The notes under the pieces were generated by a model. The model had not been told where the DNA came from and did not search any database. It was given only the letters and a program-made list of their open reading frames with translations. The translations under genes and the position numbers were made by a program. From NCBI RefSeq assembly GCF_056746865.1, contig NZ_CM163382.1: a DNA stretch of 64,000 nt; one strand, 5' to 3'. The stretch's first letter is position 1. The number at the start of each line of letters is the position of its first letter. Of the stretch, positions 49,879 through 64,000 are shown piece by piece.

Positions 49879-50003
49879 ATTTACTCCTTTCTAACATCAC
49901 CAGGAAAAGTATAACGGATTGAAAATACATTGTTTATAAAAACAGCAGGCGCGCGGTAATGGCTGGATTGCGACACGGAGTTACTTTATAATCCGCTACC
50001 ATG

Positions 50004-50078
50004 GCCCCTTAGCTCAGTGGTTAGAGCAGGCGACTCATAATCGCTTGGTCGTTGGTTCAAACCCAACAGGGGCCACCA
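50004..50078 (+). tRNA. ileX: tRNA-Ile (anticodon CAU; lysidine-modified Ile2 type)
   Basis: GGCCCCTTAGCTCAGTGGTTAGAGCAGGCGACTCATAATCGCTTGGTCGTTGGTTCAAACCCAACAGGGGCCACCA; cloverleaf with CAT anticodon in loop CTCATAA; encoded CCA. Confidence 0.9.
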
Positions 50079-50088
50079 TACACAACAA

Positions 50089-50121
50089 AGGGTTAGCTAA
50101 TAAACCAGCTAACCCTTTTTC
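50089..50121 (+). terminator. tRNA-Ile intrinsic terminator
   Basis: AGGGTTAGCT-AATAAACC-AGCTAACCCT followed by TTTTTCTTTTT. Confidence 0.65.
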
Positions 50122-50176
50122 TTTTTCCTTTGAATTGGGTCAGGTAATGGGTCAGGTAAGCTTTTTTCCATCTGAC

Positions 50177-51022
50177 TCAGATGGCTGATAATTGTCCCGG
50201 ATAACGCTTTGCAATGATGTCATTTAGCCGATCAACCAGTTCTGGTTTTCTGAATGTGATATGCGCGGAGCCCTTCTTAAAGTATCTGATGCTGAACATC
50301 TCATCTTCATAGCTCTCTTTACCCTGAACAGACTGAATGTGCTCATCCAGACGAATAGTGATGTTTTCCCGATTGTCGGGGATTGGTTTACCGCTGAACA
50401 GGTGCAACATTCTTTCCAGATCGGCGAGTCGGTCAGCCTGTTGTCCGGTGATAAGATGAAATCCCCACCGGTCCCATCTCACCAGATTGTTGACGATAAT
50501 TTTACTGCCAAATTTACAGGGGCAATTGGTTTTGTAATTCCAGTTCAGCCCTCTGAAGACGTTGATCACCCCTCGCTCAAACACCTCATCCTTATTCTGG
50601 TGCAGTTGTTCAAATGTGCTCAGGATGTTCGCTTCGCTGATTTCCGGAAAATTATCGTACTCCAGTGACCGGTACCATGTCTCACGGGCCTGTGCATCCA
50701 TTAAGGAAAGCATCCCGGAACGTTGCATCAAGTCACGCCAGATTTCACGATCGAGATTGTGTGTGATGGCTTTCATTGCCGTTTCAGGTTTCTCCATGAG
50801 CCAGCAGCCACAGCGAAAATCCTGTTTCATCGCCCAGTCCAGTGCGGTTTTACCGCCAATACTTTCTGTCATTGCTGAGATTTCAGCCAGTTGCCGGATA
50901 AGTGTGTTGATTTGCAGCAGTGTACTTTTTCGTACAGCCAGAATGTGGCGGATACTGGTTGAGCAGATAACGTCCGTATGCCCGTTGACTACTTCCGGAC
51001 GGGAGGCTGTGATATCAGACAT
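50177..51022 (-). CDS. Uncharacterised island protein (281 aa; possibly DUF4942 family)
   Basis: Long clean ORF at tRNA-proximal end of island; family assignment from memory only. Confidence 0.55.
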   Translation of the reverse strand: MSDITASRPEVVNGHTDVICSTSIRHILAVRKSTLLQINTLIRQLAEISAMTESIGGKTALDWAMKQDFRCGCWLMEKPETAMKAITHNLDREIWRDLMQRSGMLSLMDAQARETWYRSLEYDNFPEISEANILSTFEQLHQNKDEVFERGVINVFRGLNWNYKTNCPCKFGSKIIVNNLVRWDRWGFHLITGQQADRLADLERMLHLFSGKPIPDNRENITIRLDEHIQSVQGKESYEDEMFSIRYFKKGSAHITFRKPELVDRLNDIIAKRYPGQLSAI

Positions 51023-51118
51023 AATCGATATTCCTTTTTGCAGATAAATGAAAACGCCAGCCCTGTTCAGGCTGGCGTCAGTGGAATGAAGTCTGGTGAG
51101 TGAGATGATGAGTGAAAC

Positions 51119-51316
51119 TCACCGGTTCGGGGGCTGAAGCTGCAGTTGGCGCAGGGTACGGATATCCTCCCTGGCCTGTTCAATACAGGACAACAGGGCT
51201 GTCGAATCCGTTTTATCCTCATCGTTGTCAAAGATAATTCCGGATTCACAGTCGATATTGTCCTGCAGCCACGCAATCAGAATATCCAGCGCTGTTTCCG
51301 TGGTTAATGATTTCAT
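51119..51316 (-). CDS. Small uncharacterised island protein (65 aa from MKSLTTET; possibly DUF957)
   Basis: ORF 51119..51361 trimmed to internal Met to avoid overlap with upstream ORF; acidic small protein. Confidence 0.4.
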   Translation of the reverse strand: MKSLTTETALDILIAWLQDNIDCESGIIFDNDEDKTDSTALLSCIEQAREDIRTLRQLQLQPPNR

Positions 51317-51327
51317 GTTGTTTCTGG

Positions 51328-51816
51328 TTACCAGTCGAAAGTGGGTAAATCCGGCAGACACCCGGCGCTGGCATCCAGATGAATAAGACTGACGCCATAA
51401 CGCCGGATGAGAGTGACAACCAGACGGCGGAAGGTTTTTGACAGGCCCAGACGTTTAAGGTGTAGCACCGGATACGACAAAGCATCGGTACGTAACAGAT
51501 ACCCTCTGCCTGTAAAATGAATCCATTCTGATTCGCCGGTGTCATTCGTCTGATGCGACAGCGAGTACAGCCAGGTGTTGTCCGTTTCCGTGATATGTGC
51601 GGTACTGCAGCGTATGCCGGTAAGGGCAGCAAATGGTGGCGTGCAGTCTGCTGAGGTCCGGTCAGATTCATCAACAACACGAAGGGAGTAGCCGTTATCG
51701 CAGATCATGTTAATCAGTTCAGCGAGATTAACACCATCAATGTCAACGACAATTCGCCCCATATTCAGTGCCTGTACGTTAACGCTGTCGGCTTCCAGTG
51801 TCAGGGTCAGTTGCAT
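51328..51816 (-). CDS. YeeW-like uncharacterised protein downstream of cbtA
   Basis: 162 aa ORF immediately after cbtA stop, position equivalent to yeeW in CP4-44. Confidence 0.45.
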
Positions 51817-52190
51817 CGTTTCGACTCCTGATGCTTACCCAGGGTAATGTTATTTACCGTTCTGTAATTGTCGCGGGTCATCAGGCCGGTTGCCCGGCGA
51901 GCCCGGAGAATATCAATACTGTTTATTAACTGAGAGCGGGTACAGGCGCTGAATCCCGGCTGGTCGGTACGTACCAGTGCGTATTTTTCAACGAGAAAGT
52001 TCACCGCATCGCACAGTGAAATGCCTGCCTCAATATGCTGCTCAATCACACGTTCATCAGCGAACGGTGTGTCATTCAGCGTAAGGCCGTAATGCTGGTC
52101 CAGCAGTCGGGTGAGCAGTGTCTGCCAGATTTCAACCGGAGACGGGCGTGAACTGGCCGCCTGCCCGGGTAATACAGGTAATGTTTTCAT
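51807..52190 (-). CDS. cbtA: CbtA/YeeV-family type IV toxin (cytoskeleton-binding toxin)
   Basis: ORF trimmed to [23 protein letters not shown]...; family conserved sequence. Confidence 0.8.
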
Positions 52191-52279
52191 ACTGAAGATT
52201 TTCCTGATATGCAGAGATGAAAAATGGAAAAGTGGCGTGGTGAAAGCACCAGGCCGGAGCAGAAGGTTATTCTGGATAG

Positions 52280-52648
52280 TTACCTTTTCGTTTCGGGCGT
52301 CGGATAAACAGCCATATAAACGTAGCCACAACTGCCGAGGGTGTCGGCTTCGCAGGTCAGCCCTTTTGCATACAGCGTGACGGTATGCTGATGGCGGGAA
52401 TTCAGTTCACCGCTGGTGAGCATGAGTTCCAGTTGTTTCATCAGCAGCGGAAAGGCCTGGTCCAGGTGGTACGAATCCGCGTCGCTGAACCGGCCTCTGA
52501 TACCGGCGCGGTCGGCAAGGTAATGCAACCGGTTGCCCTCCTGCACCAGACGGGCGCCAAAACAAGGTGTCACGGTACAGGGCAGCCCCCACCAGGGGCG
52601 GTCGTGATTGTCATCGGGATGCGTTGTCCCGGGCAGTGTGTCTGACAC
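52280..52648 (-). CDS. cbeA: CbeA/YeeU-family antitoxin
   Basis: 122 aa; [48 protein letters not shown]. Confidence 0.8.
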
Positions 52649-52727
52649 AATAAAATCCTCACAGAAAATTGGTTAAGAATGGTCCGGTGGTGGCGATAAT
52701 TCTGCTCTTCTGAATGCCCTTCCGGAC

Positions 52728-52949
52728 TCAGTTCAGGGTGACGCTCATCAGCCGGACATACGGACCAAAACTGTCCTTACGGCGTTCTGCAAACACAGCC
52801 AGCACACCGGGAATATCCTGCACTTCACGGCCGGTATATGTATCCGTGCTACCGTGCCAGCGGTATTTGCCGGTACAGAACGGAAAAAGACGGGATGCCG
52901 GATGTTGTTGGTGAATACGCATGGCTTCACCACGGGTGATGATTTTCAT
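52728..52949 (-). CDS. YeeT/DUF987 protein
   Basis: 73 aa; MKIITRGEAMRIHQQHPASRLFPF; conserved partner upstream of cbeA. Confidence 0.7.
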   Translation of the reverse strand: MKIITRGEAMRIHQQHPASRLFPFCTGKYRWHGSTDTYTGREVQDIPGVLAVFAERRKDSFGPYVRLMSVTLN

Positions 52950-53017
52950 GGTGTGATACCTCTTAAGACAGAAGATAAAAGTGAAAACAGGTGTGATGTG
53001 GTGGTGACGGTGACGGG

Positions 53018-53494
53018 TTAAAGCAGACCGTGTTCCGCAAAGGAGAAAACCTGGCTGCCACCGACTATCAGATGGTCCGGTACCCGGATATCCACCAGGC
53101 CCAGTGCCTGTACCAGACGTTCCGTGATAAGGCGGTCTGCCTTGCTGGGTGTGACTTCACCGGACGGGTGATTGTGTGCCAGCACCACGGCAGCGGCATT
53201 GTGGTACAGGGCACGTTTAATCACTTCCCGGGGATGGACTTCCGTGCGGTTGATGGTGCCGGTGAAGAGGGTTTCACCGGCAATCAGCTGATTCTGGTTG
53301 TTCAGATACAGCACCCGGAACTCTTCCCGCTCCAGTCCCGCCATGTTCAGAATCAGCCACTCCCGTGCCGCATGCGTGGAGGTGAAGGCCACGCCGGGTT
53401 CATGAAGATGGCGGTCCAGGGTTTTCAGGGCCCGCTGAATGAGGCTGCGCTCGCCGGGCGTCATCTCTCCGGGCAGAAAAGAAAGCTGTTGCAT
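53018..53494 (-). CDS. RadC-like JAB-domain protein (YeeS/YfjY family)
   Basis: 158 aa; JAMM motif HNHPSGEVTPSKAD. Confidence 0.85.
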   Translation of the reverse strand: MQQLSFLPGEMTPGERSLIQRALKTLDRHLHEPGVAFTSTHAAREWLILNMAGLEREEFRVLYLNNQNQLIAGETLFTGTINRTEVHPREVIKRALYHNAAAVVLAHNHPSGEVTPSKADRLITERLVQALGLVDIRVPDHLIVGGSQVFSFAEHGLL

Positions 53495-53508
53495 TGTTCC
53501 GGCCCCTT

Positions 53509-53994
53509 TCAGTCAATGATGCGCATAATGGCGTTGCATTCCGGATGCTGCAGGGCGTAATCCCGCAGCCGGTAATAATGGACCGTCATGGCATAACACT
53601 CCGTACGACAGGCATGATGGCTGTACGTCATCAGACAGGCAGCAATGCCGGCGGCTTCCGGGCTCATTTCAGCGCGGTTACCGTTCATGGCACTGAACAG
53701 TACCCATGTTTCGTCATCATCGTCATCCGGTTCGGGTGCCATAAATGCCCCGCCGTTGTTCAGGGTGTACAGATTCCAGATACCACCACAGTAGTCTTCG
53801 CACAGACGATCCATCCAGCCGAAGACACGGGGCTCCAGGGTCACCCACTGTGGAATGAGGCCAAAATGCTGCGGCCAGAAGCTGATGCGCTGTTCATCAG
53901 GGACGAGGGTGGCAACCAGTTGAGGCGGGTTATTCTCTGATACAGCGGTTACGGAAACAGAAGGTGTGGTGGAATTATGCAAAACGGTTGTCAT
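53509..53994 (-). CDS. Antirestriction protein (ArdB/KlcA/YfjX family)
   Basis: 161 aa; family-typical C-terminal region; position upstream of radC-like gene as in CP4-57 yfjX. Confidence 0.7.
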   Translation of the reverse strand: MTTVLHNSTTPSVSVTAVSENNPPQLVATLVPDEQRISFWPQHFGLIPQWVTLEPRVFGWMDRLCEDYCGGIWNLYTLNNGGAFMAPEPDDDDDETWVLFSAMNGNRAEMSPEAAGIAACLMTYSHHACRTECYAMTVHYYRLRDYALQHPECNAIMRIID

Positions 53995-54084
53995 GAGATT
54001 ATTCCTTATAAAAAGTAAATGAATGGAAGAAGTCGCGGGGCAGGGACGGACATGAGTCAGAACTGCGCTTTCAGGGAAAAGGCA

Positions 54085-54903
54085 TCAGCGCATACTCTTC
54101 AGCAGTGTTTCTGCCATCACCCACAATGCGCGATTGAGCTTAATGTCGGTGTCGATGCTGTGAATGGCACGGGTATGGATACGTTTTCCTCTGGCACTGC
54201 GACCGGAAATCCCGCCTTTCAGCATATTCTCCTGGATGGTCTGATAAGCACTCCACAGGTCCTTACCGTAATCCTCCCGGCGTCGCGGTGTCAGAATGTC
54301 AGCAGCGGTGACGGGCTGATGTTCGTCACCATAACGGTAAGTCAGTGCCGCCTGTGCCAGCGCCTGGCGTGCCGGTGGCGGCAGGACCAGCGACTGCATG
54401 GCATCACGCTTCTCCTCAATCCGGTCAAAAACCCCCACCACCTCGTAAGCCCCTTCGATAACTTTCTCCACTACGTCTCCCCGGTGTGGAACACGCACTT
54501 CCCCCAGAGACTGACCACAGACGCATCCGTTCTGGCAGACGAACCTGAAGTAACCCGGCAGCATCTGGTAGCTGGAGGTACCGTCATGGGAGTTCAGCAG
54601 GATGATTTCAGGGACATGTTGTCCGTTTATCTCCCCGTCACGGCGCAGACGCAGCATGTGTTTGGTGTATCCCCGGCGGCCCGGGTCGCGCACGCGGGTC
54701 TGGCAGGCGAAGAATGGCTGGAAGCCTTCCCGCTGCAGGCTTTCCAGCACGGTGATGGTGGGGATCCAGGTATAGTTCTCGCTTCTGGATGTGTGTTTCT
54801 CTTCCCCGAATACGCTGGGGACGACCTGCATCAGTTCTTCACGGGTTAAGGGGCGGTCACGGCGTATCTGGTTCGCATAACCAAAACGACTGGCTAATCG
54901 CAT
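54085..54903 (-). CDS. DUF932 protein (YfjQ/YafZ family)
   Basis: 272 aa; MRLASRFGYANQIRRDRPLTREELMQVVPSVFGEEKH. Confidence 0.75.
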   Translation of the reverse strand: MRLASRFGYANQIRRDRPLTREELMQVVPSVFGEEKHTSRSENYTWIPTITVLESLQREGFQPFFACQTRVRDPGRRGYTKHMLRLRRDGEINGQHVPEIILLNSHDGTSSYQMLPGYFRFVCQNGCVCGQSLGEVRVPHRGDVVEKVIEGAYEVVGVFDRIEEKRDAMQSLVLPPPARQALAQAALTYRYGDEHQPVTAADILTPRRREDYGKDLWSAYQTIQENMLKGGISGRSARGKRIHTRAIHSIDTDIKLNRALWVMAETLLKSMR

Positions 54904-55174
54904 GATTTATTCCTTATGAATGAGTTAGCGGTGTAAATGAAAAAGCCGCGTCTCCCGGAGAAGACGCGGCCTGATGGACGAAATGAATGACGTTTATTGT
55001 CTGAGAAGCCCTTCACTGGCGAGCTGCGTATTTTTATGGAAGGAGATCACCCAATAACCCCATCGGGATCGGGCAATAACCGGCCAAATTGTGAACGATT
55101 CAGATGCCATTTGGCAGCAAAAGAGCCTTCGGCAATAAACGTGATGTACAACCCGGCATATCTGTTGCTCCCTG

Positions 55175-55207
55175 AAAGTAAAAAGCCCCGGTCATTATGA
55201 CCGGGGC
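55175..55207 (-). terminator. Ag43 intrinsic terminator
   Basis: GCCCCGGTCAT-TATGACCGGGGC hairpin followed on minus strand by TTTTTACTTTC. Confidence 0.6.
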
Positions 55208-55229
55208 CTGAAGGGGAGTGACCTGATTA

Positions 55230-58076
55230 TCAGAAAGTCACATTCAGCGTGGCCTGACCGTTATAGCCTTCAGCGCTGTTGCCGCTGACACTGTGGGCAT
55301 AACCGGCCTGAACGCCCAGAGTGATATTTTCCCGGACACGGGCTTCCAGTCCGGCCTGCAGGTCCAGTGACGTGCCATTCTGTGACGGTGAGAACGTCAT
55401 GTTACTGCCGGCTTCAGCTGTACCCATGCTCATGTCACCCCGGGAGCTGAAAGTGCGGATAACAGAAGGCTGTACCCACCAGTTCACCGGCAGTTCACTC
55501 ACACGGTGTTTTGTACTGTCGCGCAGAGTGTCACGGGATGAGGTGCCTTCGCCAAAGGTCATATCGTTGTGGCTGCCCAGACGGAAGCCGGCACGCACAT
55601 GTTGTGTACTGCCATGCCCGAACTTCACATAACCGGCGTTATCCTGGCCGTCATCCAGGGAGAGCCCCTGCCAGGTGTACTGCAGTTGTGGCTCCAGCAT
55701 CAGGTTGTCAGTGATACTGAAGGGCAGACCGGTTTCCAGTGAGCCCAGCCAGCCCCAGCCCCGGGCGCGGAAGTCGTTATTGTCCGATGACGCTTTCATG
55801 CTGTGGCGGGTTCCCTGTGCCACAATGTCAGCCCACAGGCCGGAGGACGTGTGTGTCAGATTCAGGTATCCGCCCAGGCTGCCGGCATCATCCCGGACTG
55901 TGCCGGCGCGGGAACCGTCATCATCCTTAACATCAACGGAAGAATGACCTGCAGCACCATACACCCCTGTCGTCAGAGACATACCTGCAACCTCTGTTCT
56001 CAGCAGGTCACCCTCCAGACGGACGAAGCCATAGCTGCCGCTGCTTTCCGGCGTGGCTCCACGGGCAATACCGCCGTTGTTATCGTGACCGAGATGACCG
56101 CCCTGAATGCTGAGACGGACGCTGTTATTTTCACCGTTTACACCGGTCTGATGGCTGCGGGAGCCTGCCAGAATCCGGTCATAGTCCATTGCCTGTGTCA
56201 GCATGGAGGCATACAGGGGGACTTCAGCACGATAAGCATTTTCACTGCGCAGGTACCAGTCTTCATCGCTGTCACGGTTCAGGGTGTAGTTAAAGGCACC
56301 GGCCTGAAGCGGGCGACTCAGGGCAAACGCACCTTCTTCTGTGGTGGCACCATTCTGTGCATCCACAACCCGGATACCCTGTCCGGAGGTTGCCACCCCG
56401 AGGTTACTGTTTCCGACATTTGTGAACGCAAGCCAGGTTTTGCCGGTTGCCTGACCACCATTAATCACCAGCTGGTCAGAGGCATTGCTGCCATCAAGGC
56501 GAACACGCATATTGATGGTGCCACCCTGACCGGTGAGGTTACTGGTTGTCAGTTTATGGAACGTTACCGGGGCGTTGCCTTTTGCAACAGCACGGCTCAG
56601 TATGGCATCCGGTGTTGTCTGATTGTCAAAGTAAATCTCCCCTGCGTTAACAATATCGCCGGTACTGACCACATCACCATTCAGTACCATGCTGGCGCCT
56701 TTACTGAGCTGTGTTCTGCCACTCAGACTTCCCCCGGCAGCCAGCATCAGTGTTCCACGATGTCCGACAGTGGTGTTGCCAGCCTGTCCCCCGGCATTAA
56801 CCGTAAAGCTGCCGCCATTTTCCAGCAGCAGGCCGCTGGCCTGACCGGATATGCCATCAATACTGAACTTACCGCTGGCATTGGTCCCCTCAACAGTGGC
56901 ACCACTGTCTGCAATCAGGGCACCACCGGATGTCATGGTGACACCTGTCGCCTTACCACCGGCAGACACTGCCAGGGTTCCGCCGTCATCCACCCGTGTT
57001 TTCTGCGCTGAATGGCCCTCCAGTACATCCAGGCGACCGCCGGACTCCAGAACAACACCGTCAGCCTTACCGTTTTCCACCGTGAAATTCCCCAGACGGT
57101 TGCTGCCGGTGACGGTTGCCGCCGTACTGGTGACCAGTGCGCCGCCCTGCTTCAGGGTGACATTCGTGGCTGTACCACCGGCGTTCACCTGCAGTTTGCC
57201 TTTCTGGTTAACGGTGGAGAAATCCGCCAGACCACCTTCCTTGATAATCTGCCAGCCGTCACTGTTTACAACAGTGCCAGACGCCGTACCGCCGTTGTGC
57301 ACATACTGGTACCCCCCATTCAGCGTGGTATCCAGTGCGTGACCATGTACAGTCTGGTCGCCGCCGGCATAAACCACAGTGGTATTTGCCGTTCCTTCAG
57401 CAGCCACAATCTGACGACCATTTTTATTGATGGTGGTGCGTACGGCATCTCCGTAGACGGTCTGCCCGGTATCACCATTTTCTGCATCCGGTCCCCCTTC
57501 CGCGCCGGTATTCACAACCGTGTCGGTTGCCATTGCGCCGGATTTGACGGCCTGCCAGCCCTTCTCATTAATGACGGTACCCGTTGCAATCCCGCCTTCA
57601 TGTATCCACTGCTCACCGCCGTTCAGAGTGGTGTTCACTGCCTGCCCCTGAAGGCTCTGTCCGCCTCCGGCACTGATAACCGTGTCTGAAACGCTTCCTC
57701 CGGCATTCACTCTCTGAAGACCACCACCGGTGACAGTAGTGTTGTTGGCGGTACCGCCATTTTGTATCCATTGGCCGCCGGTATTCGCCTCGTTATCCGG
57801 CCCATACTCCAGCCCGGTACTGATGGTCATTCCGTTGGCCGTACCGAAGACAATCTGGTTGTCATGATTTGTCAGTGTTCCGCCGCTCACGGTTTCTCCC
57901 GCCTGTACGACCGTGTCAGCAGCCAGTACCGGGACTGACGTGACAGCAGCAAGAGACAGCGCAACCGCCACACCGGTGCGTTTTCCCCGTGAGCGCGCCA
58001 GTTCGGAAGCCACCACCAGGGTGCCCGTAATGTGATTCCATACCAGCCTGTAGCTGGTGTTCAGATGTCGTTTCAT
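55230..58076 (-). CDS. flu: Antigen 43 self-associating autotransporter adhesin (short ~950 aa variant)
   Basis: ORF trimmed to MKRHLNTSYRLVWNHITGTLVVASELARSRGKR extended signal peptide; beta-helical passenger repeats; C-terminal beta-barrel ending ...YNGQATLNVTF. Confidence 0.9.
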   Translation of the reverse strand: MKRHLNTSYRLVWNHITGTLVVASELARSRGKRTGVAVALSLAAVTSVPVLAADTVVQAGETVSGGTLTNHDNQIVFGTANGMTISTGLEYGPDNEANTGGQWIQNGGTANNTTVTGGGLQRVNAGGSVSDTVISAGGGQSLQGQAVNTTLNGGEQWIHEGGIATGTVINEKGWQAVKSGAMATDTVVNTGAEGGPDAENGDTGQTVYGDAVRTTINKNGRQIVAAEGTANTTVVYAGGDQTVHGHALDTTLNGGYQYVHNGGTASGTVVNSDGWQIIKEGGLADFSTVNQKGKLQVNAGGTATNVTLKQGGALVTSTAATVTGSNRLGNFTVENGKADGVVLESGGRLDVLEGHSAQKTRVDDGGTLAVSAGGKATGVTMTSGGALIADSGATVEGTNASGKFSIDGISGQASGLLLENGGSFTVNAGGQAGNTTVGHRGTLMLAAGGSLSGRTQLSKGASMVLNGDVVSTGDIVNAGEIYFDNQTTPDAILSRAVAKGNAPVTFHKLTTSNLTGQGGTINMRVRLDGSNASDQLVINGGQATGKTWLAFTNVGNSNLGVATSGQGIRVVDAQNGATTEEGAFALSRPLQAGAFNYTLNRDSDEDWYLRSENAYRAEVPLYASMLTQAMDYDRILAGSRSHQTGVNGENNSVRLSIQGGHLGHDNNGGIARGATPESSGSYGFVRLEGDLLRTEVAGMSLTTGVYGAAGHSSVDVKDDDGSRAGTVRDDAGSLGGYLNLTHTSSGLWADIVAQGTRHSMKASSDNNDFRARGWGWLGSLETGLPFSITDNLMLEPQLQYTWQGLSLDDGQDNAGYVKFGHGSTQHVRAGFRLGSHNDMTFGEGTSSRDTLRDSTKHRVSELPVNWWVQPSVIRTFSSRGDMSMGTAEAGSNMTFSPSQNGTSLDLQAGLEARVRENITLGVQAGYAHSVSGNSAEGYNGQATLNVTF

Positions 58077-58448: not shown

Positions 58449-59321
58449 TCAGAAGAAAATCCAGTTCCATACAGCGCGGGCAACAGAGACCACCGAGTCA
58501 CGGACGGCACGCAGAACCGTGCGTGCAACAGAGGCAATACAGACGCTCTCCGCCGTGTCAAATATCCGGTCCACCGCACCGGTAAACTGTTCACGGGCCT
58601 GAGACCGGACAGATTCCGTGCGCAGCTCGTCCTGCAGGCGGGTCATCAGGGGACTGGCGGCATGGTCGGGAAGCGCTGTCATGAGCGCACTGACCAGCGT
58701 ATCCAGTTCCCAGCCGGTGCAGGCCGATACGGCCACAACCGGATGTACGGGTCGGAACAGCCGGAATACCGCATCTGTTTTCTCACGAATGTTCTGTGCC
58801 TGTGCGGGAGAAGGCTGAATGCCGGCCATATCCCATTCATGGCAGGGCTCCGTTTTGTCGGCCTGCGTCACCACAAACAGTACCCGCTGATGTCCCCGGT
58901 GCAGGATGTGTCGCCAGAAATACTCATCCACAGACAGGGCACGGTCATCGGCTTTAATCAGCCACAGTACCAGGTCAAGTTCAGGCAGAATGTTACGGTA
59001 CAGGGCTTCATACTCTGCATCCCTGTCCCGGCTCTCGCCCACCCCGGGCAGGTCAGTGATAATCATGCTGTGACCGTGGCCACTCAGACGGAAGCGCTGC
59101 ACTTCCCGGGTGCCGGCGTGAACATCACTGACCGGTGTGACTTCCCCCTGAAACAGCGCATTACAGAGTGAGGATTTACCGGCCCCGCTTTTACCCATAA
59201 TGCCAATCACGGGTTCGTGGCTGGTGAGTTTACGCAGATGTTCCAGGATGTGACGGGAAAGCGAATAAGGCAGGGAGGAGAGCGGTTTTTCAATTGCCTC
59301 AATGGCATCAGACGGATTCAT
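58449..59321 (-). CDS. YfjP/YeeP/YkfA-family GTPase
   Basis: P-loop GKSGAGKSS, G3 DLPG, G4 TQADK; start taken at MNPSDAIEAIEK (ORF extends to 59360). Confidence 0.75.
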   Translation of the reverse strand: MNPSDAIEAIEKPLSSLPYSLSRHILEHLRKLTSHEPVIGIMGKSGAGKSSLCNALFQGEVTPVSDVHAGTREVQRFRLSGHGHSMIITDLPGVGESRDRDAEYEALYRNILPELDLVLWLIKADDRALSVDEYFWRHILHRGHQRVLFVVTQADKTEPCHEWDMAGIQPSPAQAQNIREKTDAVFRLFRPVHPVVAVSACTGWELDTLVSALMTALPDHAASPLMTRLQDELRTESVRSQAREQFTGAVDRIFDTAESVCIASVARTVLRAVRDSVVSVARAVWNWIFF

Positions 59322-59584
59322 ATATGTATTCCCGGTGAAAAAAGACAAAACCCCGCGCACCGGAAAGGTGGCGGGGGATTCACGGAGATAATATCTGTCT
59401 GAAATTATTTAGAATGCACCTGGTGCACTGCAAAGGAAAGGCAGTATTCCGTTCCTCCTCCTTGTCGTGAATACCCCAGGTATCTCACAATGTACACCGA
59501 CTTACTCCGGGGCTGCCTGAACCACAAGATTGCTGTAGAATTGCCCCCAATGATTCAGGTCCAAACCAGGCAAATGGATTAAAA

Positions 59585-61141
59585 ATGACAAGTATTCAAC
59601 AACGAGCAGAACTGCACCGCCAGATATGGCAAATTGCCAATGATGTCAGAGGTTCTGTTGACGGATGGGATTTTAAGCAATACGTTCTGGGCGCACTTTT
59701 CTACCGTTTTATCAGCGAAAATTTTTCCAGTTATATTGAAGCCGGTGATGACAGTATCTGTTATGCGAAACTGGATGACAGCGTAATTACTGATGACATT
59801 AAAGACGATGCCATCAAAACTAAAGGCTACTTCATCTACCCCAGTCAGCTTTTCTGCAACGTAGCGGCGAAAGCAAATACTAATGACAGGCTGAATGCAG
59901 ATTTAAACAGCATCTTCGTTGCTATCGAAAGTTCTGCTTACGGTTATCCTTCAGAAGCTGACATCAAAGGTTTGTTTGCTGATTTCGATACCACCAGTAA
60001 CCGCCTGGGTAACACCGTTAAGGATAAAAATGCCCGCCTGGCTGCGGTTCTGAAAGGGGTTGAAGGGTTAAAACTTGGTGACTTCAACGAACATCAGATT
60101 GACCTGTTCGGTGATGCCTATGAGTTCCTGATTTCTAACTATGCGGCAAATGCCGGTAAGTCAGGCGGTGAGTTCTTTACACCGCAGCACGTCTCCAGGC
60201 TGATTGCACAACTGGCTATGCACGGGCAGACCAGCGTTAACAAAATCTACGACCCGGCAGCGGGTTCCGGCTCACTGTTGTTGCAGGCGAAAAAACAGTT
60301 TGATAACCACATCATCGAAGAAGGCTTTTTCGGTCAGGAAATCAACCATACGACCTATAACCTGGCGCGTATGAACATGTTTTTGCACAACATCAACTAC
60401 GACAAGTTTGATATCAAGCTGGGTAATACACTGACTGAGCCACACTTCAGAGATGAAAAACCGTTTGATGCCATCGTTTCTAACCCGCCGTATTCGGTGA
60501 AATGGATTGGCAGCGATGACCCGACGCTGATTAACGATGAACGTTTTGCCCCGGCTGGCGTTCTGGCCCCCAAATCAAAAGCTGACTTCGCCTTTGTACT
60601 ACATGCGCTGAACTATCTTTCTGCCAAAGGTCGCGCCGCGATTGTCTGCTTCCCGGGTATTTTTTACCGTGGCGGCGCGGAGCAGAAAATCCGTCAGTAT
60701 CTGGTCGATAATAACTATGTCGAAACCGTGATTTCACTGGCACCGAACCTGTTCTTTGGCACCACCATTGCCGTCAATATTCTGGTGCTGTCTAAACATA
60801 AAACGGATACCAAAGTTCAGTTTATTGACGCCAGCGAACTGTTCAAAAAAGAGACTAATAACAACATCCTGACCGATGCTCATATCGAACAGATTATGCA
60901 GGTATTTGCCGGCAAGGAAGATGTTGCTCATCTGGCGAAATCTGTCACGTTTGAGACTGTTGTCGCGAATGACTATAACCTGTCGGTGAGCAGCTATGTG
61001 GAAGCGAAAGATAACCGCGAAGTGGTGGACATTGCTCAGCTCAACGCCGAGCTGAAATCTACTGTCGCCAGGATTGACCAGCTTCGCAGGGATATTGATG
61101 CCATCGTCGCTGAAATTGAAGGCGAGGAGCAGGAGGCATGA
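59585..61141 (+). CDS. hsdM: Type I restriction-modification methyltransferase subunit HsdM (type IC, EcoR124-like)
   Basis: 518 aa; SAM-binding DPAAGSGS and catalytic NPPY motif; overlaps hsdS by 4 nt. Confidence 0.9.
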
Positions 61142-62343
61142 GTAGCGTGAACTTCTTGGAAAAGCTGTTGGATGGCGTTGAGGTCGAGTGGAAGACACTT
61201 GGGCAAACTTGCAAAATTGAAACAGGAAAGCTTAATGCGAATGCGGCTGTTGATGATGGAGAGTATATGTTCTTCACGACAGCCAAAGAGACAAGCAAAA
61301 TTGATAAATTCCGCTGGGATACAGAGGCATTGCTGATTGCAGGCAATGCGAATGTTGGTGAGGTGAAGCATTACATCGGCAAGTTTGAGGCTTATCAGCG
61401 CACCTATGTTCTGACAAATTTCGACGAAAATGTAAGTGTTAGATTTTTGTATTTTGTGCTTAGCCATAGCCTGAAGAAATATCTCGAGGAAAGAACAAAT
61501 AGCGCGGCAATGACATATATCGTGCTATCAACCTTAGAGAATTTCCCTATCCCCATCCCCTGCCCAGGCAACCCCCAAAAATCCCTTGCCATCCAGTCTG
61601 AAATCGTTCGGATTCTGGATAAATTTACTGCACTTACCGCTGAGCTTACCGCTGAGCTTAACATGCGTAAAAAACAGTACAACTACTATCGCGACCAGTT
61701 GTTGAGTTTTAAAGAGGGTGAGGTTGAGTGGAAGACTTTGGGGGAAATTGGAGATTTTACATATGGATATGCAGCCAAAGCCATGGATTCAGGAGATGCC
61801 CGTTTCGTGAGAATTACTGACATAAATAAAGACGGGAAGCTATCGAAAGAAAACCCAATGTACGTTGAATTAAATGAGGAAAATGAGAAATATACCTTAG
61901 ACAAAAATGATTTACTCATGGCAAGAACTGGGGCAACCTTTGGTAAAACAATGATTTTTGAAGAAGATTATCCAGCAGTATACGCTGGTTTTTTAATAAA
62001 GTTGAACCTAAATAAAACGATTATTAATGCCAAATATTACTGGCACTTTGCACAAAGTGATTTTTTTTGGGAACAGGCTAATAAATTAGTATCTGGTGGT
62101 GGGCAACCACAGTTTAATGCTAATGCACTGAAACAAGTCAGAGTACCTATTCCATACCCATCTCACCCTCAAAAATCTTTAGACGAACAGGGGCGTATTG
62201 TGGATATTCTGGATAAGTTTGATGCAATCGCAGCTTCCATCACCGAAGGTCTCCCGCGTGAAATCGAGTTACGTCAAAAACAATACGAATACTATCGTGA
62301 TTTACTGCTCAGTTTCCCAAAACCTGAAACTGTCAGTAAATAA
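61138..62343 (+). CDS. hsdS: Type I R-M specificity subunit HsdS (type IC)
   Basis: 401 aa; two TRDs separated by central conserved region with TAELTAEL repeat and conserved KKQYxYYRDxLLSF blocks after each TRD. Confidence 0.85.
61627..61659 (+). repeat. Tandem 12-bp repeat (ACCGCTGAGCTT x2, preceded by partial ACTGCACTT) encoding TAEL-TAEL in hsdS
   Basis: Direct reading of hsdS codons 164-174: [11 protein letters not shown]. Confidence 0.8.
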
Positions 62344-62464: not shown

Positions 62465-64000
62465 ATGACTCATCAAACACACACCATTGCTGAATCCAAT
62501 AACTTTATCGTCCTTGATAAGTACATCAAAGCTGAGCAAACAAGCGACAGCTACCAGAGCGAATCGGACCTGGAACGTGAACTGATTCAGGACCTGCGGA
62601 ATCAGGGTTATGAATTTATTTCCGTAAAATCACAGTCGGCAATGCTGTCTAATGTTCGGGAACAGCTTCAGAGCCTCAATGGTGTGATGTTTAATGACAG
62701 CGAGTGGCGGCGCTTCACGGAGCAGTATCTGGACAACCCCAGCGATGGTATTCTGGATAAAACCCGTAAAATCCATATCGACTATATCTGCGACTTTATT
62801 TTTGACGACGGGCGACTTGAGAACATCTATTTGATAGATAAAAAGAATCTCATGCGCAATAAGGTGCAGATTATCCAGCAGTTTGAACAGACGGGTTCTC
62901 ATGCTAACCGTTATGACGTCACGATCCTGGTTAATGGTTTACCGCTGGTGCAAATCGAACTAAAAAAACGCGGGGTGGCGATTCGTGAGGCTTTCAACCA
63001 GATACATCGTTACAGTAAAGAGAGTTTTAACAGCGAAAATTCCCTGTTTAAGTATCTGCAACTGTTTGTCATTTCTAACGGCACCGATACCCGTTATTTT
63101 GCCAACACGACAAAGCGCGATAAAAACAGTTTTGACTTCACCATGAATTGGGCGAAATCAGACAACACGCTGATTAAAGACCTCAAAGACTTTACCGCTA
63201 CCTTTTTCCAGAAACATACTCTGCTGAATGTTCTGGTGAACTACAGCGTTTTTGACAGTAGTCAGACGCTACTGGTGATGCGACCGTACCAGATTGCCGC
63301 CACCGAGCGCATTCTGTGGAAAATTAAGAGTTCCTTTACAGCGAAGAACTGGTCAAAACCGGAAAGCGGTGGGTATATCTGGCACACTACCGGTTCTGGT
63401 AAAACCCTCACCAGCTTTAAAGCCGCGCGTCTGGCAACAGAGCTGGACTTTATTGATAAAGTCTTCTTTGTGGTCGACAGGAAAGACCTCGATTACCAGA
63501 CCATGAAGGAATATCAGCGTTTTTCGCCAGACAGCGTCAACGGCTCGGAAAATACCGCAGGCCTTAAACGAAATCTGGATAAGGACGATAACAAAATTAT
63601 CGTCACTACTATTCAGAAACTCAATAACCTGATGAAAGCAGAAAGCGACCTGCCTGTATATAATCAGCAAGTGGTGTTTATATTTGATGAATGCCACCGC
63701 AGCCAGTTTGGAGAAGCGCAGAAAAACCTGAAGAAGAAATTCAAACGCTATTATCAGTTTGGTTTTACCGGCACCCCTATTTTCCCGGAAAACGCCTTAG
63801 GCTCAGAAACAACCGCCAGCGTATTTGGCCGTGAATTGCATTCGTATGTGATTACCGATGCGATTCGTGACGAAAAAGTGCTCAAATTCAAGGTGGACTA
63901 CAACGATGTGCGGCCACAGTTTAAGTCTTTAGAGACAGAAACTGACGAGAAAAAACTGAGTGCGGCTGAAAATCAGCAGGCGTTTCTTCACCCCATGCGT
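62465..64000 (+). CDS. hsdR: Type I restriction endonuclease subunit HsdR (type IC), 5' portion only, truncated by window end
   Basis: In-frame translation [20 protein letters not shown]...; helicase motif I TGSGKT and motif II DECH; open to window end (not in ORF track because no stop). Confidence 0.9.

Follow-up and report, generated by a model that had tools for sequence, protein, structure and literature searches.

Three genes at the end of an Escherichia coli CP4-type island are conserved backbone with relatives in plasmid leading regions

The CP4-44, CP4-57 and CP4-6 islands of Escherichia coli K-12 share the gene string yeeS-yeeT-yeeU-yeeV-yeeW, in which yeeW is present only as a fragment, and related genes stand at the ends of the LEE and SRL pathogenicity islands, where orf54-56 of the Shigella SRL island correspond to L0008-L0010 of LEE and to YeeW, DUF957 and DUF4942 (PMC6980539). 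Homologues in plasmid leading regions, named YdiA/YgfB (DUF4942) and Aec77-like (DUF5983), are themselves uncharacterised, and temperate phages encode DNA methyltransferases headed by an N-terminal DUF4942 module. Here we analysed a 64,000-nucleotide (nt) stretch of E. coli chromosome (RefSeq assembly GCF_056746865.1, contig NZ_CM163382.1; hereafter the window), in which three adjacent genes of the families DUF4942, DUF957 and DUF5983, together called the trio, lie between a tRNA gene and the type IV toxin gene cbtA. The string and order of genes are those of the K-12 islands, but the window holds a complete trio, joined to the tRNA gene ileX; its three genes match L0008-L0010 of the LEE and SRL ends, and a LEE-linked copy lies in locus L012. 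The families are already catalogued and the leading-region enrichment of two of them is already published, and this is not a new kind of system. What we add is that the trio belongs to the island backbone, that its small gene is real and not a frameshift product, that the methyltransferase label is wrong for DUF4942, to which no solved structure is related, that an intergenic hairpin is conserved, and that the island arm as a whole is laid out like the leading region of a plasmid.

The three open reading frames (ORFs) lie on the minus strand between the tRNA gene and cbtA, as the original prediction had placed them. The gene nearest the tRNA (50177..51022, minus strand) encodes a protein of 281 amino acids (aa) from an ATG; it is the terminal gene of the island, has no methyltransferase domain, and matches Pfam DUF4942 (PF13708) with 231.6 bits against a cut-off of 25, over profile positions 1-189 of 190. 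It had been called long and clean, and a frame of this length has a chance of about 1e-6, or (61/64)^281, of remaining open. The middle gene (51119..51316, minus strand) encodes 65 aa from an ATG with the core motif WL(Q/E)DNI...IIFDNDED, and its product is acidic as described (isoelectric point (pI) 4.16, net charge -7.5); extension to a GTG start at 51361 would give 80 aa. The name DUF957 comes from RefSeq, through WP_000839263.1 in a 99.9%-identical locus, and from 47% identity to an IncHI2 protein labelled DUF957, while the Pfam copy searched gave no match to a DUF957 model, even with RefSeq-labelled DUF957 proteins as queries. The third gene (51328..51816, minus strand) encodes 162 aa from an ATG, with an acidic N-domain (residues ~1-60) that matches PF25638 at 108.3 bits and a C-domain (68-162) that matches PF19419 at 74.1 bits (cut-off 27), in keeping with its description as YeeW-like and placing it in DUF5983. 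No match to a housekeeping enzyme was found for these proteins, and the genes are highly conserved and syntenic, against the refuting condition that had been set, a lack of conservation. The earlier statement that no function could be assigned stands insofar as none is experimentally known; it goes too far in that proteins identical or nearly identical to these already bear the names DUF4942, DUF957 and DUF5983 in RefSeq, and that sequence and genomic context provide a lead.

Open frames of 162 and 65 codons have chance probabilities of about 4e-4, or (61/64)^162, and about 0.04, respectively, and because a 65-codon frame is not improbable by chance, the small gene needs other evidence. We therefore compared six copies of the trio, that of the window and five further copies differing from it by 9-13% in DNA sequence, which occupy five sites: ileX, an integrase gene, LEE espF, an EAL-domain gene and cadC. 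All 18 of the 18 ORFs were intact. The ratio of nonsynonymous to synonymous divergence (dN/dS, Nei-Gojobori) was 0.14 for DUF4942, 0.13 for the DUF957 gene at a synonymous divergence (dS) of about 0.39, and 0.25 for DUF5983, alongside 0.20 for the validated toxin gene cbtA, with mean synonymous divergence of 0.31-0.43 across these four genes. The DUF957 gene kept a constant length of 198 nt and its own ATG in 6/6 copies, and a homologue of its product (47% identity, E 3e-15) lies inside a 103-aa IncHI2-plasmid protein in an unrelated neighbourhood. The small gene is thus supported as real by its low dN/dS across six intact copies and by a homologue in a different context, and these comparisons indicate that all three genes are real and under purifying selection.

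The position of the 281-aa ORF had been read as one where such islands often carry cargo, and this did not hold. The order cbeA-cbtA-DUF5983-DUF957-DUF4942-island end is unchanged in the six copies at five sites, and 3276 of 5426 complete E. coli genomes (~60%) contain matches that cover 80% or more of the trio (1.7 kb), at a median of 3 and a maximum of 13 places per genome. The full backbone string runs DUF932, ArdB/KlcA-like antirestriction, JAB/RadC, DUF987, cbeA, cbtA, DUF5983, DUF957, a conserved hairpin, DUF4942 and the island end. The trio is therefore the invariant terminal part of the CP4-44/CP4-57-type island backbone, not variable cargo. K-12 retains only the yeeW fragment (DUF5983) and is without DUF957 and DUF4942. 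The 353,691-bp record NZ_MG591698.1 (hits H26, H56 and H81), labelled as a plasmid, also has cbtA and a trio whose proteins are 100% identical to those of the window; it is either a very large plasmid with a captured island arm or a mislabelled chromosomal segment.

The families of the trio are shared with conjugative plasmids, ICE-like elements and temperate phages, and relatives of all three genes occur on plasmids, most of them conjugative. Homologues of DUF4942 were detected by tblastn in 4348 of 72,556 plasmids (~6%; 31-38% identity over >90% of the protein), and 3999 of these 4348 are typed as conjugative. We examined six such loci: an IncK2/Z plasmid (L006), the IncL/M plasmid pOXA-48 (L007), an IncFII plasmid of Pectobacteriaceae (L015), an IncFIB/IncFII hybrid of K. 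pneumoniae (L024), Xylella pXF51 (L025) and a MOBP/MPF_I E. coli plasmid (L026). In five of the loci (L006, L007, L015, L025 and L026) the DUF4942 gene lies 0.65-6 kb upstream of mobA/mobC/traM and a relaxase gene, points toward them and runs in the same direction as genes for antirestriction, JAB/RadC, DUF1380, ssb or DUF932 proteins, which is the leading region; L024 has the same leading-region neighbours, with no relaxase in the stretch shown and insertion sequence (IS) elements following. Short proteins of the DUF5983 C-domain (~100 aa, range 96-188) are encoded by the last gene before the origin of transfer (oriT) or relaxase in L009 and L015-L018, where the relaxases are of MOBP, MOBF and TraI-domain types, and in L015 the DUF4942, DUF932 and DUF5983 genes all fall within 3.3 kb. 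Of the 1336 plasmids with a DUF957 homologue, 1224 are conjugative; IncHI2-sized plasmids predominate, and the homologue has a DUF3085 gene next to it.

These placements agree with a published survey of leading regions (Samuel et al. 2024, Supplementary Table 1; PMC11541004), which lists two DUF4942 families, family 24 (n=2171, false discovery rate (FDR) p=0, median position 1 from oriT) and family 76 (n=551, FDR p 2e-100, median position 6), and a DUF5983/Aec77 family, family 72 (n=618, FDR p 6.6e-199, median position 2), all three on the strand transcribable from the transferred DNA. That list (PMC11541004) also contains other families known from these islands, namely DUF932/YafZ, DUF905/YkfF and KlcA. 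The plasmid YdiA/YgfB and Aec77-like proteins belong to the same Pfam families as the window proteins, with 28-43% identity in the DUF5983 C-domain; the plasmid leading regions and the window have ArdB/KlcA, JAB/RadC and DUF932 neighbours in common, and in both settings the genes point toward the element end or oriT. The window differs in being chromosomal, and in a DUF5983 protein that has an additional acidic N-domain and a gene coupled to cbtA. On the IncK2/Z plasmid, the 348 nt upstream of DUF4942 (L006 8614-8961) fold as single-stranded DNA (ssDNA) into a long imperfect hairpin of -77 kcal/mol (z -4.8), a value comparable to those below -75 kcal/mol in 300-nt windows sought in an ssDNA promoter screen of pESBL (PMC12672017); the predicted fold hints at a resemblance to leading-region ssDNA promoters of the Frpo/ssi type.

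From this context we put at about even odds (a probability of roughly 0.5) the reading that the trio helps its element to establish in a new host, through anti-restriction, anti-defence or early DNA handling. This is the most likely role because the plasmid relatives sit at the oriT-proximal tip and are oriented for transcription from the incoming strand. The trio would then belong to the set of genes used on arrival in a new cell, like ArdB/KlcA and the plasmid ssb, psi and ard genes. More speculatively, the acidic DUF957 protein and the N-domain of DUF5983 might act as decoys: both are acidic (pI ~4.1), as are the small anti-restriction DNA mimics ArdA and Ocr, a likeness that consists of composition and anti-restriction gene context only.

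The DUF4942 family offers a possible molecular lead. It comprises 2191 clusters at 50% identity (E<=0.001), most members being stand-alone proteins of 260-290 aa. The check proposed for the 281-aa protein, an AlphaFold model, gave a confident two-lobed structure (predicted local distance difference test 89, predicted template modelling score 0.79), with a helical half (residues 24-159) and a small alpha/beta half (160-275), and without a solved structural relative: searches of the PDB by sequence and profile returned as best match augmin at E 0.16, which we judged to be noise, and a fold search of BFVD returned only DUF4942-like phage proteins. Four residues, W95, D201, H254 and N267, are invariant in the family and present in the window protein, alongside many nearly invariant polar ones. 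Fused relatives of 467-559 aa carry DUF4942 at the N-terminus, followed by a module of about 190 aa with the motifs FPTP, VLEPSAGxGA and MNPPF, which is the core of a gamma-type N6-adenine methyltransferase without an obvious target-recognition domain. Proteins of this architecture include the 531-543-aa 'DNA methyltransferases' of temperate phages (phiPSA1 gp22; Aeromonas phage 4_D05 gp31, which sits in the early region between Ant and NinG), and PHROG 6263, labelled 'DNA methyltransferase', also matches DUF4942. The conserved DUF4942 residues are kept in the fusions, so that the phage orphan N6-adenine methyltransferases of PHROG 6263 have a homologous module with the same invariant residues as the window protein; they also have the catalytic half that the window protein is without, and the latter therefore cannot methylate.

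This architecture raises the possibility that DUF4942 supplies DNA or DNA-substrate recognition to the phage methyltransferases, a mechanism that is speculative and that we rate as much less probable than the establishment role as a whole. Since the invariant polar residues are kept and the catalytic half is absent, a stand-alone DUF4942 protein would work by something other than methylation, such as binding to incoming DNA or to a restriction or modification component of the host. Among other observations on the family, 6 of 95 DUF4942 members gave weak Pfam matches (best E 0.03) to kleA_kleC, a KorC-regulated family of the IncP kilE locus, and a distant link between the N-terminal helices of DUF4942 and this plasmid family is possible from such matches. 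Distant DUF4942 relatives in metagenomes lie on short contigs with generic mobile-element or phage neighbours only. An 'N-6 DNA methylase' encoded beside a plasmid DUF5983 gene was considered and found to be unrelated to the methyltransferase half of the fusions.

Several observations weigh against an establishment role. The conserved polar residues of DUF4942 (S21, R31, D91, T136, N166, D201, H254 and N267) could equally mark the active site of an enzyme, and because fold searches yield no functional analogue of DUF4942, the case for DNA recognition comes from domain architecture. Sequence searches of NCBIfam, PADLOC and the PDB give no function for the trio proteins. The island copies are chromosomal, and the part of the island that was examined has no annotated relaxase; blastn searches with six plasmid oriT regions and the L018 intergenic segment between DUF5983 and an integrase gene against the window island and other copies gave only chance-level matches (E>=0.25), and short nic-site patterns were uninformative in the island. 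An inverted-repeat scan of island positions 50079-55300 detected no long hairpin comparable to that of L006, and the single island intergenic region that was folded, upstream of DUF932, gave short terminator-like hairpins only. For the chromosomal copies, expression on early entry is thus hypothetical. The K-12 islands have lost or truncated these genes, which are thus dispensable for the resident host. Finally, the tight coupling of DUF5983 to cbtA could mean a role related to the toxin-antitoxin system.

A more ambitious joint reading, which we consider a long shot, would have the cbtA-distal arm as a working leading region: the excised island would be mobilised as ssDNA by helper conjugation from an origin near the DUF4942 end, the trio would be the first proteins made in the recipient, where they would disarm restriction or other defences, and phages would have joined DUF4942, as an undescribed fold for DNA recognition, to a methyltransferase without a recognition domain. 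If true, this would explain why several intact, selected copies persist in ~60% of E. coli genomes. The oriT similarity search of the island lends it no support.

The strongest rival to an establishment role, itself unlikely in our judgement, assigns DUF5983 and DUF957, perhaps together with DUF4942, to the CbtA/CbeA type IV toxin-antitoxin system as additional parts, for example a second antitoxin, a regulator or a specificity factor. Its appeal lies in the anatomy of the operon. The start of DUF5983 overlaps the stop of cbtA by 10 nt in the window and by 4 nt in other copies, and a Shine-Dalgarno-like CAGGAG precedes it, an arrangement suggestive of translational coupling, and the synteny with cbtA is invariant in islands. 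According to a large survey of E. coli, DUF5983 invariably follows CbtA, and does so in nearly all sequence types (PMC10790755), and a 2026 preprint connects the cbtA operon with the gene that comes after DUF5983. However, plasmid proteins of the DUF5983 C-domain occur without a nearby cbtA, beside DUF932 and oriT, and plasmid and phage homologues of DUF957 and DUF4942 are likewise found without cbtA. The CbtA-family systems of K-12, where only the yeeW fragment is left, are reported to function as two-gene pairs.

A poorer prospect still is that the trio forms a defence module against phages or plasmids, of an abortive-infection-like kind, at the island end. The island also carries a type I restriction-modification (RM) system, a toxin-antitoxin pair is adjacent to the trio, and the many conserved polar residues of DUF4942 and DUF5983 are compatible with enzymes. 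Searches of PADLOC-DB, however, matched none of the three proteins; the enrichment of their relatives in plasmid leading regions, beside anti-restriction and SOS-inhibition genes, belongs to the offensive side of such conflicts, and the fusion of phage DUF4942 to orphan methyltransferases has the look of a counter-defence device.

It is very improbable that the trio is island-specific virulence or fitness cargo with no part in the biology of the element. Its presence in pathogenicity islands such as LEE and SRL would fit such a role, but it closes islands of quite different cargo at different sites, and its relatives extend to plasmids of plant pathogens, environmental metagenomes and phages.

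We give hardly any credence to the 281-aa protein being a DNA methyltransferase or a restriction-modification subunit, as database names ('restriction methylase'), PHROG 6263 and methylase annotations in phage records would have it. The window protein stops where the methyltransferase module of the fusions starts, and the FPTP, EPSAGxG and NPPF motifs all fall in the C-terminal extension that it is without; it matches no methyltransferase Pfam family even at E<=1, and shows neither the Rossmann-like fold nor the motif I and motif IV, (D/N)PP(Y/F), of S-adenosylmethionine-dependent DNA methyltransferases. The methyltransferase label for stand-alone DUF4942 proteins was rejected on this basis.

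The weakest alternative, that the 65-aa ORF is spurious, whether through an artefactual frameshift or because it extends DUF5983 by programmed frameshifting, draws on the missing Pfam model and on an AntiFam family labelled spurious, and is scarcely credible given its dN/dS, its fixed length, its own ATG and an IncHI2 homologue neither of whose neighbours is DUF5983. The AntiFam family in question, ANF00264, is described in the 2026 preprint as lying just downstream of DUF5983, with a programmed frameshift suggested; judged from position alone, it is probably the 65-aa gene, and a genuine DUF957 family may be being filtered from annotations as spurious. We rejected the programmed frameshift between DUF5983 and the 65-aa ORF: four copies have a spacer of 11 nt and the other two one of 19 nt, and because this 8-nt difference (2/6 copies) shifts the relative frame, a frameshift fusion cannot be conserved.

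Few uncharacterised genes of E. coli mobile DNA are as widespread as the trio, and the ~6% of sequenced plasmids that carry relatives include resistance plasmids of the pOXA-48 type and the IncI complex, where these are among the very first genes to enter the recipient, a stage known to be rich in anti-defence functions. If the establishment role is true, the trio would bring new activities against restriction or defence, DUF4942 would represent a new fold, and a biological connection would exist between conjugative transfer and the 'cryptic prophage' islands of E. coli.

DUF957 begins 11 nt after DUF5983, and the interval that separates DUF957 from DUF4942 contains a GC-rich hairpin with a T-run after it (GACGCCAGCC-loop-GGCTGGCGTTTTC; 51053..51079, minus strand), detected by a terminator scan and by alignment of the six copies, in which the stem is identical despite a dS of ~0.4 in the coding regions. 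The ATG of DUF4942, which is provided with a good ribosome-binding site, comes 31 nt after the hairpin, which is likely to be a terminator, an attenuator or an element that stabilises the mRNA. Within the trio, promoter prediction gave no sigma-70-like promoter on the minus strand, and DUF4942 may be expressed either by read-through or attenuation or from an unrecognised start. The same arrangement recurs on the minus strand at 51029-51079, before DUF4942, and at 54908-54975, before DUF932: a GC-rich hairpin, TTTTCATTTA, 5-35 nt, AAGGAATA and an ATG, for which shuffled sequences gave an expectation of zero by chance. It is also present in other island copies and is absent from the plasmid loci fetched; we suggest from its sequence that it may be a shared cis-regulatory cassette combining a terminator or attenuator with a ribosome-binding site.

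The chromosomal side of the junction runs dnaG, rpoD and mug, then the tRNA gene (anticodon CAT; 50003..50078, plus strand), then the island. ARAGORN labels the gene tRNA-Met (CAT), as against the tRNA-Ile given by RefSeq in the 99.9%-identical locus (L001), that is ileX (tRNA-Ile2), a lysidine-modified CAU tRNA; Rfam scores it at 72 bits as a tRNA. A scan of 49900-53100 with Rfam found this tRNA only, along with a sub-threshold antisense match to 'Plastid-ycf2' on it, an artefact. A terminator-like hairpin detected by the terminator scan follows the tRNA (50087..50118, plus strand). Among genomes that have no island here, core-genome homology extends to about 50091 in one group and to about 50126 in another, which includes O157:H7, and these end points place the island junction at about 50127, ~50 bp past the DUF4942 stop codon, thus making DUF4942 the terminal island gene. 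The ileX-island junction is present in 347 of 5426 complete E. coli genomes and so is rarer than the trio itself. A tandem 12-nt repeat (50137-50160; GGGTCAGGTAAT then GGGTCAGGTAAG) lies at the junction, with the tRNA terminator on one side and the stop codon of DUF4942 on the other, and could be a site for a recombinase or another protein; this stretch differs in other island copies.

Toward the tRNA, the island reads hsdM/hsdS/hsdR, a GTPase gene, the Ag43 adhesin gene, DUF932, antirestriction, JAB/RadC, DUF987, cbeA, cbtA, DUF5983, DUF957 and DUF4942, with the genes from DUF4942 through the GTPase all on the minus strand and the type I RM genes hsdM, hsdS and hsdR on the plus strand. Upstream of DUF5983 and overlapping it, cbtA (51807..52190, minus strand; Pfam CbtA_toxin, E 1.1e-58; also named in RefSeq) is preceded by the antitoxin gene cbeA/yeeU (52280..52648, minus strand; Pfam CbeA_antitoxin, E 7.9e-55; likewise in RefSeq). 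The ORF list entry for cbtA, 51807-52331, gives a 174-aa product from a TTG; the real start is the ATG at 52190 (127 aa), because the Pfam match covers residues 48-159 and the RefSeq gene is 384 nt long. Deeper in the island, from 58449-62343 and beyond (L001 28550-35628), are a YeeP-like GTPase gene, hsdM (59585-61141), hsdS (61138-62343) and, farther on, hsdR, and in a near-identical genome an IS5-family element and lactate-utilisation genes come after the type I RM genes; this GTPase and RM stretch is the variable cargo portion of the island. The island extends past position 64000, and no direct repeat of the tRNA 3' end that would mark its far boundary was found inside the window. In strain rl0044 (hit H108; NZ_CP121356.1 1203124-1203454), the match begins at window position 50000, 3 nt before the tRNA start, and continues into DUF4942 with the mug flank absent, which reflects either a rearrangement at the tRNA or a tRNA copy that moves with the island.

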